Below, piece by piece: positions 20,527 to 43,528 of a DNA stretch of 64,000 bases. The notes under the pieces were generated by a model. The model had not been told where the DNA came from and did no database searches. It saw nothing but the letters and a program-made list of their open reading frames with translations. Each line of letters starts with the position of its first letter. The first letter of the stretch is position 1. The stretch lies in contig CAWFQB010000008.1 of assembly GCA_963817895.1 (NCBI GenBank), positions 1 to 64,000 on the forward strand, read 5' to 3'. The position numbers were made by a program, and so were the translations under genes. This DNA comes from an uncultured Chthonomonadaceae bacterium. Its GTDB lineage: Bacteria > Armatimonadota > Chthonomonadetes > Chthonomonadales > Chthonomonadaceae.

Positions 20527-20558
20527 TAGCCGCGAATGAACGCGAATAGACGCGAATA
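20527..20558 (+). repeat. Solo 10-nt tandem array TAGC(CGCGAATGAA)~3
   Basis: Same unit as the GxxExxY terminal repeats. Confidence 0.85.
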
Positions 20559-24458: not shown

Positions 24459-24740
24459 ACCGCGAAACACGCGAAACACGCGAAAAAGAACGCTGCAAAA
24501 ATGTCCGTTTGAAAAACGAGTGTCCCATTATAGCACAAGGTTCGCTTAACCGGCATATAAAATGCCGGTTAAGCAGACCTGCGGCCAACCGTCCTGCGGA
24601 CGAGCAAACGCTTCTGTTTATAAGCCGTAATGCCCTGTTACCCGAATGTCCTCTGCTTTTTGTTCCTTTTTCGTTTATTTCGCATATTTCGCGGTTTATT
24701 TCTCCTCTTCTCCTTTTCTCCTTTTCTCCTTTTCTTCCTC
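24459..24740. repeat. Inverted pair of 9-nt repeats (ACGCGAAAC) with an internal 13-bp palindrome and an adjacent (TTTTCTCC)n array
   Basis: AACCGCGAAACACGCGAAACACGCGAAA at 24459; complementary TTTCGCATATTTCGCGGTT near 24678-24696; GCTTAACCGGCAT/ATGCCGGTTAAGC at 24544-24574. Confidence 0.82.
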
Positions 24741-26441
24741 TCCGATTCGTTTCCACACCCGAACTCCGCTGCCGTTCGGGTCGGTCCAGACGGGCTGCCA
24801 TTTGTCGCCATACTCGCGCAGGTAGTTGTCAAAGATTTGGCGGCTTGGTGGGACGCCCCATTGCCACGAGTCCTGAAGCAGATAGCGGACATGATGGGGC
24901 GCGATATACGCTTTTTCCTGCGCCCGCGCGCTGGTGGTGGGTTCCAGTTGCGCGGTAACGTTACCTGCATACAGGTGCAGCAGGTATTGCGGCTTGCCCA
25001 TGACAATTTGGCGCGGGTTGGAGTTTTGGCGCAGCCATGCGCAGGCAGCGTAAAACCCGGCCTCGTCGCGATTTCTGCCGAAGTCGTAACCGGCCAGTGT
25101 CGGACGATGCTCCTGCCGTATCACGCGCCAATGCACATTGGCAAAGTAGATGAGCAGCGCGGCGATACCAATAGTTTGTACGGCGGTTACAACTGTCGCA
25201 TTGGAACGCTTTTGCAGCCATTCGGACGCCTGCTCCACGCCGAGCATCAGGAACAGAATCATAAACGGGATCAGCGGAACCAGAAACCGCGCGTTTTGCC
25301 AGGGCCACATCGCCGCCACAAACCAGAACAGTATGCTGAATCCGACGGACAACTTCATGCCGCGCTTCCACGCTTCACGGATACCCACGAACATCAGCAG
25401 CGTAAGTGGCACGGCTATTATATAGAAAAGCGCCAGCCAGACGGTGCGCGGCGGAGCCATCATGTACAGCGAAGTCCGGGGTATCAGGCCGATATAGGTG
25501 GGCAGGCCGAACTTCATGCGCGACAAAATTCCGCGCGCATTGAGCGGTATGCGTCCCGCGTCCGCCTGCATCGGGTTTTTCAGCGTGAATTGGTCTACGT
25601 AACTGGAATAGCGTATTTCCGGGTGCGCCTTCACGATATGCGAGTTGCGCTTCAGCCACCCGCCTACCACAAGCAGCGTCACCAGCAATGCCCCCATCCC
25701 CCACTTCCACCCGAACCGCTTCCAAAACCAAACAATTTGCGCCAGCAGAAGGGCGATGCCGGAGGTTCGCATGAGGAAGGCCGTTGCTGCGCAGAGGAGA
25801 GAAAAGGAGATTTTAGATGGGGGTTGATGGTTGATAGTTGAAAGAGACTCCTCTCCTTCTTGTACCTCCTTTTCTCCTTTTCTCCTTTTCTCCTTTTCTC
25901 CTTTTCTTTCTACTAAAACAACCGACGCCAGACACAAAAACAGCAACGGCATTTCCGACATGACTTCGTTGGCGTAGGAGATCAGGGAGGGACAGGTAGC
26001 GGCGAAAAGCAGACCGGCGGCAATATAGCGGTTGGGCAGTCGGGCGCGTTTCAGGAGAGCATACAGCATGGGCAGTGTGCCGAGCAGCAGGGCCAGCAAT
26101 GTCAGTTTGACGGGAAGAATCACGCCCATTGCGTCCCGCCCCGTTATCCGCATCCAAAAAGCAATGATGGCGGGGAAACCGGGCGGGTACAGCGTGTCGA
26201 GCGGCTGCCGAACGTCATTGAGTAGCCGTAAATCGCCGGTACGCGCCAGCGACTCGCCCAAAACCATATAACGCCCGGAGTCGTTGGCGACATTGAGATA
26301 CGGCGTCCATTGCAGCAGCCACAGTATGACAATAATTGCGCCACACAAAGCAAACAAAAATAGCCGCGAATGAACGCGAATGAACGCGAATATAGATGCA
26401 AAGGATTTAGAAATGAAAGGCAACTCGTTTCCATTCGACAT
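24696..26441 (-). CDS. Polytopic membrane glycosyltransferase (GT-C/ArnT/PMT-like); start uncertain
   Basis: NDSGRY...YPPGFP, VMSEMP, many TM segments, RFLVPLIP; contains in-frame repeat-derived peptides. Confidence 0.75.
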   Translation of the reverse strand: MSNGNELPFISKSFASIFAFIRVHSRLFLFALCGAIIVILWLLQWTPYLNVANDSGRYMVLGESLARTGDLRLLNDVRQPLDTLYPPGFPAIIAFWMRITGRDAMGVILPVKLTLLALLLGTLPMLYALLKRARLPNRYIAAGLLFAATCPSLISYANEVMSEMPLLFLCLASVVLVERKGEKEKRRKGEKEVQEGEESLSTINHQPPSKISFSLLCAATAFLMRTSGIALLLAQIVWFWKRFGWKWGMGALLVTLLVVGGWLKRNSHIVKAHPEIRYSSYVDQFTLKNPMQADAGRIPLNARGILSRMKFGLPTYIGLIPRTSLYMMAPPRTVWLALFYIIAVPLTLLMFVGIREAWKRGMKLSVGFSILFWFVAAMWPWQNARFLVPLIPFMILFLMLGVEQASEWLQKRSNATVVTAVQTIGIAALLIYFANVHWRVIRQEHRPTLAGYDFGRNRDEAGFYAACAWLRQNSNPRQIVMGKPQYLLHLYAGNVTAQLEPTTSARAQEKAYIAPHHVRYLLQDSWQWGVPPSRQIFDNYLREYGDKWQPVWTDPNGSGVRVWKRIGEEEKEKRRKGEEEK

Positions 26442-26865
26442 GGGGATTTTGAAAGTTGACCAGCATAGCAAGAGTGCGGTTGGTGGCGCGCAGGTAATTC
26501 AAGCACTGCGCAATGTGTATGTTGGTTAGAGACGAAACACACTTCAACTCCACAATCAGTTTACCTTCAACCAGCACATCCGCGAAATACTCGCCAATCA
26601 TTTCGCCTTTGTACTCCACTTGAATGGGAACTTGCGCCTCCGCTTTCAGGCCTCGCGTCTGCAATTCCTTCACCAGAGCGCGTTCATAGAGTTTTTCCAG
26701 AAACCCCGCGCCAAGCACGTTAGAAACTTCAAACACTGCTCCAACAGTTTCTCGAAACAGCCTATCCAACTCCTGCCGCTCTTTCTGTCGGGCGCTACCA
26801 TATCTGCTTCCATTGGTTTCCTCCTCATCCCATTCGCGTTCATTCGCGTTCATTCGCGGCTATTT
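26358..26865. mobile_element. GxxExxY gene unit bounded by perfect 34-bp terminal inverted repeats made of a 10-nt tandem unit
   Basis: AAATAGCCGCGAATGAACGCGAATGAACGCGAAT at 26358-26391 is the reverse complement of 26832-26865. Confidence 0.75.
26407..26853 (-). CDS. GxxExxY protein (PD-(D/E)XK nuclease superfamily, PDDEXK_3)
   Basis: LGAGFLEKLYERAL, ADVLVEGKLIVELK, QCLNYL, LVNF. Confidence 0.93.
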   Translation of the reverse strand: MNANEREWDEEETNGSRYGSARQKERQELDRLFRETVGAVFEVSNVLGAGFLEKLYERALVKELQTRGLKAEAQVPIQVEYKGEMIGEYFADVLVEGKLIVELKCVSSLTNIHIAQCLNYLRATNRTLAMLVNFQNPHVEWKRVAFHF

Positions 26866-26887
26866 CCTTTCTGTGCTTTGCATCAGG

Positions 26888-28303
26888 CTACCAGTCCATG
26901 ACCGAGCCGTCGGCGCGACGGGTGTTGGGCAGGTAGGCGCGTTTGTACGGATAGCGTTTTGCCGCTTCTTCGTTGACATCCACGCCCAACCCGGGCGCGT
27001 CCGACACGTTGAGATAGCCGTTGTGGAAAGTGGGCGCGCCGGGTAGGACTTCGTGAACCGCGTCGGAAAACAGGACCATCTCCTGAACGCCGAAGTTGGG
27101 AATAGCAAGGTCTACGTGAACATTGGCGGCGTGCATGGCAGGGCCGATGTCGCCCGGTCCGTGCCACGCGGTTTGAATATAGTAACATTCGGCAATGGCG
27201 GCGATCTTTTTGGCTTCCGTAATGCCGCCGATGTGTCCCAAATCGCAGCGAATAAAATCTATGAGTTGTTCGGTCAGCAGGGGCAGGCAGTCCCATTTGG
27301 TATGAAACAGTTCGCCCATTGCCAGCGGGGTTGTCGTGTGCTGCCGAATCAGCCGGAAGCTCTCTTTATGTTCGGGGCGCAGGCAGTCTTCCAGAAAGAA
27401 CAGGTGGTACGGTTCCAGTTCCCGCGCCAGCCGAGCCGCCTGTATGGGCGTCAATCGCTCATGCACATCATGGAACAGTTCAATCTCCTCCCCTAACTTA
27501 TCCCGCAGATGCGCGAACAGACGGGGAATCGTCCGCAAGTACGGCCCCGGCTCCCAAGTCTCTATCTGTGGCATCGGCCCACCATCACCGGAGGTGATAA
27601 AGGATGAGGGATGTGTCCTTCCCTGCGGGTGGACGCCCGGGACGAGGGATAAATTGGATTGTCTCTCCTCTTCTACTTTTCTCCTTTTCTCCTTTTCTTC
27701 CCCTTCCGGTGACGGGGAAGCCGACTCGCCCTGCGTTTCTGCCGGGTCGCGGGGTTCGGGGAGGGATTGAGAAGGTGGGGCGCTCCAGGTGGCGGACGCG
27801 GCTTCTCTGGCTCCGCCTACGCCATACGTTCCCACTGTGCCGGGAATGGCGACCTGCGCGCGAACCACTTTGAAGCCCCGTTCCATGCACTGCCGGACGC
27901 TGTCTTCCACTTCCGCGAAATCGCGCCCGCCCGCATGGGTGTAGGCCAATGCGCCTGTTCGCGTTCTGCCGCCGAGAAGGGAGTAGACGGGAAGACCGGC
28001 GCGTTTGCCCTTGATGTCCCACAGGGCAATATCAATTCCGGCAAGCGCGGTCATCAGAACGGGGCCGCCGCGCCAGTAGGTTCCCCGGAACAGCATTTGC
28101 CAGATGTCTTCAATCTGGTCGGGGTCGCGCCCGATGAGCAGGGGCGCGATATGTTCGGTCAGGGCAGACGCGACGGCAAGTTCGCGCCCGTTGAGCGTGG
28201 CGTCCCCCACTCCATACAGGCCGGGTTCATCCGTCAGGATTTTCACGACGACATAGTTGCGGGTAGGACAGGTGACAATCACGCGCACATCAGTTATTTT
28301 CAT
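26888..28303 (-). CDS. D-mannonate dehydratase (ManD/RspA subgroup, enolase superfamily) with an in-frame loop insertion
   Basis: VTCPTRNYV, GVGDATLNGRELAV, YWRGGPV, HDVHERLTP, FFLED, HGPGD, NFGVQE, RADGSVMDW. Confidence 0.88.
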   Translation of the reverse strand: MKITDVRVIVTCPTRNYVVVKILTDEPGLYGVGDATLNGRELAVASALTEHIAPLLIGRDPDQIEDIWQMLFRGTYWRGGPVLMTALAGIDIALWDIKGKRAGLPVYSLLGGRTRTGALAYTHAGGRDFAEVEDSVRQCMERGFKVVRAQVAIPGTVGTYGVGGAREAASATWSAPPSQSLPEPRDPAETQGESASPSPEGEEKEKRRKVEEERQSNLSLVPGVHPQGRTHPSSFITSGDGGPMPQIETWEPGPYLRTIPRLFAHLRDKLGEEIELFHDVHERLTPIQAARLARELEPYHLFFLEDCLRPEHKESFRLIRQHTTTPLAMGELFHTKWDCLPLLTEQLIDFIRCDLGHIGGITEAKKIAAIAECYYIQTAWHGPGDIGPAMHAANVHVDLAIPNFGVQEMVLFSDAVHEVLPGAPTFHNGYLNVSDAPGLGVDVNEEAAKRYPYKRAYLPNTRRADGSVMDW

Positions 28304-37077: not shown

Positions 37078-37110
37078 ATTCGCGTGTATTCGCGTTCATT
37101 CGCGGCTAAA
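37078..37110 (-). repeat. Solo 10-nt tandem array (GxxExxY TIR unit)
   Basis: ATTCGCGTGTATTCGCGTTCATTCGCGGCTAAA. Confidence 0.85.
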
Positions 37111-43460: not shown

Positions 43461-43528
43461 GAATTTTGCCGCGAATACACGCGAATACAAATCATTATAG
43501 ATAGGATTAGAACAGGAGAGGCGCGAAG

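Follow-up and report, generated by a model that had tools for sequence, protein, structure and literature searches.

A GxxExxY nuclease gene between arms of a genome-wide tandem-repeat family, one arm probably read into a neighbouring glycosyltransferase, in an uncultured Chthonomonadaceae bacterium

In the window analysed here, a stretch of 64,000 nucleotides (nt) from an uncultured Chthonomonadaceae bacterium (assembly GCA_963817895.1, contig CAWFQB010000008.1, positions 1 to 64,000; genome G000 below), a gene for a GxxExxY protein, a predicted nuclease, lies between two inverted arms built from a short, tandemly repeated word. This cassette stands between manD, encoding a D-mannonate dehydratase, and a gene encoding a membrane glycosyltransferase-like protein. 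The reading favoured here, with moderate confidence, is that the cassette has been inherited in place between the two operon genes, that its right arm likely forms part of the glycosyltransferase N-terminus and that the nuclease likely maintains a genome-wide family of arms carrying the CGCGAAT word. With the right arm likely read into the glycosyltransferase, excision of the cassette is very probably not needed. It also seems fairly probable that the nuclease has its own word as its target. Coordinates are those of the window throughout, and all genes of the locus are encoded on the minus strand. The features of the locus are as follows.

26888..28303, minus strand: manD, the upstream gene (NF043051, 555.8 bits, cut-off 550), with its stop codon at 26890-26888
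26866..26885, minus strand: purine-rich outer leader, which lengthens the stem by imperfect pairing with the sequence that directly follows the right arm
26860..26883, minus strand: leader open reading frame (ORF) of 7 codons, MQSTERK, with its TAG inside the left arm
26832..26865, minus strand: left arm, AAATAGC plus 2.7 copies of CGCGAATGAA, encoding the nuclease N-terminus MNANERE
26407..26853, minus strand: GxxExxY protein of 148 amino acids (aa), predicted PD-(D/E)XK nuclease fold, residues D92, E102 and K104 intact
26670..26813, minus strand: 47-codon ORF within the nuclease gene, out of frame, with a Shine-Dalgarno (SD) match of -11.2 kcal/mol
26407..26441, minus strand: 3' end of the nuclease gene, where ATG 26441 and TTG 26423, both in the +1 frame, are candidate starts of the glycosyltransferase
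26358..26391, minus strand: right arm, read as FAFIRVHSRL in the glycosyltransferase frame
24696..26441, minus strand: membrane glycosyltransferase-like gene, with weak matches to PF03901 and NF047440, both below cut-off; its start is a predicted one

The glycosyltransferase was matched in 14 of 40 relatives, one of the matches being marginal. Among the matches listed, 14 orthologous 5'-end loci, including that of G000, were inspected, and manD adjoins the glycosyltransferase gene in nine of them. Two relatives, G002 and G001, belong to the same genus as G000, and their glycosyltransferases are 84% and 69% identical, respectively, to that of G000. The nuclease gene and the left arm are absent from both genomes, but the right arm persists in frame with the glycosyltransferase, whose N-terminus reads TFAFIRVHSRLVLLFSC in G002 and LFAFIRVHLRLSLLVFC in G001. 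In G001, the glycosyltransferase gene has a possible GTG start that overlaps the manD stop codon, from which the frame runs on through the arm. G021, a member of another genus, has MKDVFAFIRSRLRL read from an ATG (glycosyltransferase start, MKDVFAFIRSRLRLTLILAC), and 25 of 33 positions of the DNA here are identical to the arm, the next best among 136,580 windows reaching 21; this sequence is a decayed arm in the same register. The distance from the arm peptide to a conserved Cys is the same five residues in G000, G002, G001 and G021, the arm register in the glycosyltransferase thus being held across two genera. In G016 (locus L006), the glycosyltransferase N-terminus contains LRAHFKL, aligned in register with IRVHSRL of the arm peptide, which could be a far-decayed arm, a convergence or a pre-existing motif that was overwritten by the arm.

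G002 also retains 27 of 33 nt of the 3' end of the nuclease gene, including the TTG, and this stub encodes the derived motif KRVA, which it has in common with the nuclease of G000 (A is found in 4 and V in 92 of 120 homologues). Because G002 keeps this stub with KRVA, the cassette is older than the split between G000 and G002. The cassette was lost imprecisely, by a one-sided deletion that spared the arm, and the loci form a decay series of a full cassette, a nuclease stub with an arm, an arm only and a decayed arm. At two other loci (L004 in G017 and L009 in G024), the spacer between manD and the glycosyltransferase gene carries other, unrelated repeat-like sequence; the junction may therefore be a hotspot for small inserts.

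The first-pass annotation of this stretch had proposed that a 508-bp unit (26358-26865) interrupts the glycosyltransferase gene and that its precise removal, through DNA excision, RNA splicing or ribosome bypass, restores a protein that starts at ATG 26883. The anatomy on which this proposal was built is as it had been described. The two arms, of 34 nt each and both of the composition given above, are 100% complementary and stand 440 nt apart; the GxxExxY ORF lies between them, with its ATG (26853) within the left arm; and no direct repeat or target-site duplication is found at the flanks of the unit. Deletion of the 508 bases does place ATG 26883, located 5 nt past the manD stop codon, in frame with the glycosyltransferase, and the transcript is able to form a very stable stem (z -6.85; 0 of 100 shuffled sequences fold as well). 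These features, together with the weak SD matches of the alternative starts and the short N-termini of some homologues (G015, MIRRTLI), would agree with precise removal. Nevertheless, this explanation is considered very improbable, as an uninterrupted allele that such a removal would yield, or such a leader, was found at none of the 13 other orthologous loci among the matches listed, which distinguishes the cassette from gene-interrupting elements that are excised. Moreover, the glycosyltransferase genes of both same-genus relatives lack a leader ATG and retain the right arm in frame. Among sequencing runs, no RNA run was listed as carrying the sequence, and the best share of its words was 0.12, a result that speaks neither for nor against removal.

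The exact arms of the 508-bp unit stand, but its edge is not sharp, because the stem continues imperfectly for about 15 bp beyond the 34-bp arms into the supposed host N-terminus, with 26866-26885 pairing with the glycosyltransferase codons past the right arm. The leader, being partly complementary to the far flank, therefore looks like element sequence. Outer-leader similarity at this pair is 13 of 20 (random mean 8.4 +/- 1.7), tied for the best of 17 arm pairs; complementarity of the outer flanks was not seen as a general trait of paired arms (8.7 vs 8.4), making this pair a mild outlier. No Rfam match exceeded the gathering score, the single hit reaching 18.1 vs 34.7 bits (E 0.34).

Precise excision was also assessed as a rule for the whole family. 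From 84 GxxExxY loci in relatives and other phyla (two short partial matches, L079 and L080, were excluded), the 29 in which an arm pair (score of at least 16) is followed by an ORF of 80 codons or more were scored at the maximal-complementarity boundary for an in-frame ATG within 60 nt, leaving the other 55 unscored. Such an ATG was found in one cassette, the 26358-26865 unit itself (1 of 18 and 0 of 11 in two sets). About 9% would be expected by chance, because 16 of 60 leaders have an ATG between the stop codon and the arm, and one third of these would be in frame; the frames of the leader ATGs show no preference (6/5/8). With one case among 29, at chance level, precise excision was rejected as a family rule, and the restoration of the gene is most likely a coincidence. 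The claim of a new self-excising gene insert is not supported. The accompanying idea of a selfish element at the 5' end of a gene holds as far as the compact selfish anatomy is concerned, as all four GxxExxY genes of G000 and 47 of the 84 loci have arms (inverted-repeat score of at least 16), but not with regard to the interruption of the gene.

The GxxExxY protein is a clear member of its family, matching TIGR04256 with 134.6 bits (cut-off 35) and PF13366 (PDDEXK_3) with 136 bits (cut-off 22), and no other families were matched. D92, E102 and K104 are conserved across 119 sequences, and MNANERE is found near the N-terminus in 30 of the 120 best-matching homologues, query included. The predicted model (pLDDT, the predicted local distance difference test, 89.6) has structural neighbours that are nearly all PD-(D/E)XK-type nucleases; the best is 3ijm (Z 8.0, root-mean-square deviation 3.0, 96 aligned residues), and further neighbours include the Cas4-like SSO0001 (4ic1) and the Holliday-junction resolvase Hjc. 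A sequence search of solved structures gave 0 matches at E<=10. By its modelled fold and its D...(D/E)xK residues, the protein is a predicted PD-(D/E)XK nuclease. The family is large (3,396 matches in one search), and PF13366 is listed as having an unknown function and as showing multiple transfers (PMC3424549). No description of arms at GxxExxY genes was found in the literature, subscription papers lying mostly beyond the reach of the search.

The CGCGAAT arm is present in 157 copies in G000 by pattern search (156 in a looser count). Of these, 78 are at the 3' ends and 53 at the 5' ends of genes, 1 is within a gene and 25 are unassigned. Only 34 arms form inverted pairs, 17 in number and mostly of about 100-210 bp, and the 26358-26865 pair is the sole one to contain the nuclease. 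Coding sequence lies within 60 nt on the outer side of 109 of the 157 arms and on the inner side of 33. The arms of a pair resemble each other, with 2.35 mismatches on average for the 17 pairs, whereas arms paired at random differ at 4.45 positions. The idea that a solitary arm is one half of a pair with mixed words was considered and rejected, as only 5 of the 157 arms face, within 200 nt, an arm in the opposite direction with another of the tested words. Arms of another tested word in the same direction within 200 nt accompany 8 of the 157, and such same-direction arms were seen on the inner side in 8 cases and on the outer side in 1. Arms of different words are also stacked at single gene ends (G000:C12:63056-63175, C4:712435-712557 and others). 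Further solitary CGCGAAT arms are located in the window at 20531-20557, 37078-37104 and 43470-43486, and the arm at 37078 is common to G002.

Each of the four GxxExxY genes of G000 is flanked by inverted tandem-repeat arms of a different word, so that the search for such flanking arrays, suggested along with the excision proposal, was borne out in every case. The nuclease of the window exists in one copy, and the GxxExxY paralogues of G000 are 36-45% identical. Synteny with relatives was also seen for the three remaining cassettes (C3 with G002, C6 with G002 and G015, C1 with G001). In the three genomes compared at C6, a change of word affects both arms jointly; a GTG in the last nuclease codons, preceded by a strong SD (-8.5 to -11.5), is in the same +1 frame in all three, and the frame of the next gene runs through the arm into a signal-peptide-like stretch. 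In G001, a GxxExxY gene with CACAGAT-type arms (L082, G001:C2:2993794-2995406) is interrupted by an insertion-sequence-like insert of about 1.2 kb.

These observations bear on the possibility of autonomous transposition, in which the entire cassette would move like an insertion sequence and leave solitary arms as scars. A single nuclease gene bounded by terminal inverted repeats, as in classical insertion sequences, the occurrence of GxxExxY genes at many unrelated gene junctions across phyla, the decay of the cassette to one arm in G001 and G002, and the listing of PF13366 with multiple transfers could all be accommodated by this explanation. It is nonetheless quite unlikely, given that G000 has one copy per word, that target duplication is absent, both of these being differences from classical insertion sequences, and that all four cassette sites are common to other species. 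In addition, tblastn found no nuclease remnants at other arm sites (4 matches in all).

The CGCGAAT word has 229 matches in G000, 106 in G002 and 13 in G001, and 0 in the 38 other relatives; among 300 genomes of the phylum, only G001, G306 and G069 contain it. G069 also encodes the closest nuclease among these 300 genomes (62% identity, E 1e-49; next 2.7e-36), and this nuclease starts in the left arm of a CGCGAAT word. Because G001, G002 and G306 hold the word without a close nuclease, arms persist in the absence of the enzyme. From the 106 matches in G002, 36 arms at 34 loci were taken among the matches listed; 7 were unmappable and 29 were mapped to G000, where 19 sites have the same word, 9 have no arm and 1 has another word. 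Arm sites are therefore mostly old, with some turnover. A direct word swap was observed at L116 (G002:C44:243480), where a CGCGAAT arm in G002 corresponds to a CAGGAT arm at the orthologous gene end in G000 (G000:C5:523591).

The position of the arms and the sharing of about two thirds of the mapped sites by both species could instead suggest that the arms are host-domesticated signals for regulation or RNA processing, which GxxExxY binds or cleaves for the host without spreading them. The placement of coding sequence mainly on the outer side shows how closely the arms hug gene ends, and precedents exist in the host role of Ssn and NTS (PMC11893778) and in paired tandem arrays of Geobacter that were interpreted as regulator sites (PMC2700814). 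This alternative is regarded as rather unlikely, in view of the restriction of the word to 4 of 301 genomes, the replacement of one word by another at a single site and the loss of the nuclease in relatives.

Under inheritance in place, expression of the locus could proceed as follows. Ribosomes leaving manD would re-start on the leader ORF or on the ATG in the arm, opening the stem and producing the nuclease. The leader ORF, whose TAG is 6 nt ahead of the nuclease ATG and in the same frame, may relay ribosomes from manD to the nuclease; it is not conserved at the orthologous loci among the matches listed. A second re-start inside the 3' end of the nuclease gene would then give the glycosyltransferase, TTG 26423 being the favoured and ATG 26441 a possible site. 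No stop codon breaks the glycosyltransferase frame between the interior of the nuclease gene and the far side of the right arm, and the basic residues that precede the first hydrophobic segment likely come from the arm. The ATG at 26813, with its strong SD, lies just inside the left arm and is out of the nuclease frame; in the other three cassettes of G000, the ATG at this place, just past the left arm, shares the nuclease frame. The out-of-frame ATG could be due to chance, act as a decoy that damps nuclease output or be the trace of a frameshift. A frameshift that would make ATG 26813 the real nuclease start was rejected, as in each of its two closest homologues an arm-type N-terminus of similar length is read in frame.

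With regard to the arm family, we infer that the enzyme would bind its own triple word, probably as a hairpin or single strand, and place a nick or cut within this word or next to it. Copying from another arm during repair would keep paired arms alike; occasionally it would also add an arm to a gene end that had none, or replace one that carries a different word. The cassette would itself rarely move, as is the case for RAYT genes, and would be lost via one-sided deletions that spare a translated arm, and arms falling in a coding frame would become part of host proteins. A broader, tentative possibility is that the many GxxExxY proteins are all word-specific nucleases whose recognition word is encoded in their own N-terminus and which write or overwrite triple-repeat arms at gene ends, and that the arms outlive the enzyme and join host proteins permanently, the glycosyltransferase of this locus being an example.

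Several points weigh against the favoured reading. The SD matches of the two candidate glycosyltransferase starts are weak, at -2.7 kcal/mol for ATG 26441 and -3.3 kcal/mol for TTG 26423 (median for predicted genes, -4.35), so both starts are tentative, and a start at TTG 26357, just past the arm, is possible, in which case the arm would be untranslated. Arm translation is not general, because most arms at 5' ends precede the gene's own ATG; the assignment of arm positions relied on gene calls by a simple, purpose-written script. The 123 unpaired arms out of 157 are unlike REPINs. Beyond the genus, the link between word and nuclease is seen in G069 only, and there the right arm is cut by the contig end, and no close nuclease was found in G001, G002 and G306 (best 41-43%) although the word is present. 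The fold matches are middling, and none is close enough to name an activity or substrate. Finally, no new arm insertion at a truly empty site was caught in a near-identical strain.

Among known systems, an arrangement similar to that of REPINs and RAYTs, built on a PD-(D/E)XK enzyme, appears to be the best reading, and is held with the same moderate confidence as inheritance in place. In REPtrons (Bertels and Rainey 2011, PMC3116915), too, a sedentary, single-copy nuclease gene stands between copies of its cognate repeat, a genome has several such pairs of nuclease and repeat, and many intergenic copies lack the gene. The enzyme there is an HUH tyrosine transposase, whereas it is of the PD-(D/E)XK type here; REPs are palindromes and occur mostly as inverted doublets, in contrast to the tandem 10-mer triples of G000, in which 34 of 157 arms are in 17 pairs; and the arm in G000 encodes the N-terminus of its own nuclease and can be translated into neighbours, a difference from that system as it is presented there. 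Ssn with its NTS/SRM repeats (Chenal et al. 2025, PMC11893778) is likewise a small, single-domain nuclease in a repeat-gene-repeat layout, with cognate enzyme-repeat pairs and hundreds of copies per genome. By comparison, Ssn belongs to the GIY-YIG family, while Pfam gives only PF13366 for the protein studied here; its repeats form hairpins by themselves and are seldom located within genes, and cleavage has been proven for Ssn, whereas it would be expected here by inference. TIRtrons (PMC3733652) also have a nuclease or transposase gene between terminal inverted repeats whose sequence forms a dispersed family, but TIRYT is a tyrosine transposase, and tandem-word arms are not described in the accessible sections of that report. 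The paired heptanucleotide and octanucleotide arrays of Geobacter metallireducens (PMC2700814) are tandem arrays of short words on opposite strands, in and between genes; they were read as regulator sites, and no link to a nuclease is described in the text available from that study.

As the cognate arm provides a substrate and the three other words of G000 provide built-in negative controls, the function of GxxExxY is directly testable. The lasting value of the locus lies in offering this common nuclease family, so far an orphan, a substrate that can be tested, along with a clear case of an arm absorbed into an N-terminus, which illustrates how a selfish repeat may come to form the start of a membrane protein of the host. 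Small nucleases, each specific for its word, might also yield a panel of useful tools, as Ssn proved to be.

Two further observations concern neighbouring genes. ManD has 471 aa compared to the 403 positions of its profile, which it matches in two stretches, and an in-frame, low-complexity insert of about 65 aa with short tandem repeats is therefore placed at approximately 27780-27580 (minus strand). The coding sequence of a geranylgeranyl-reductase-like FAD (flavin adenine dinucleotide) enzyme at 24444-23144 (minus strand) is divided between two frames that overlap (24444-23926 and 24118-23144), which could reflect a frameshift, a pseudogene or an assembly error.
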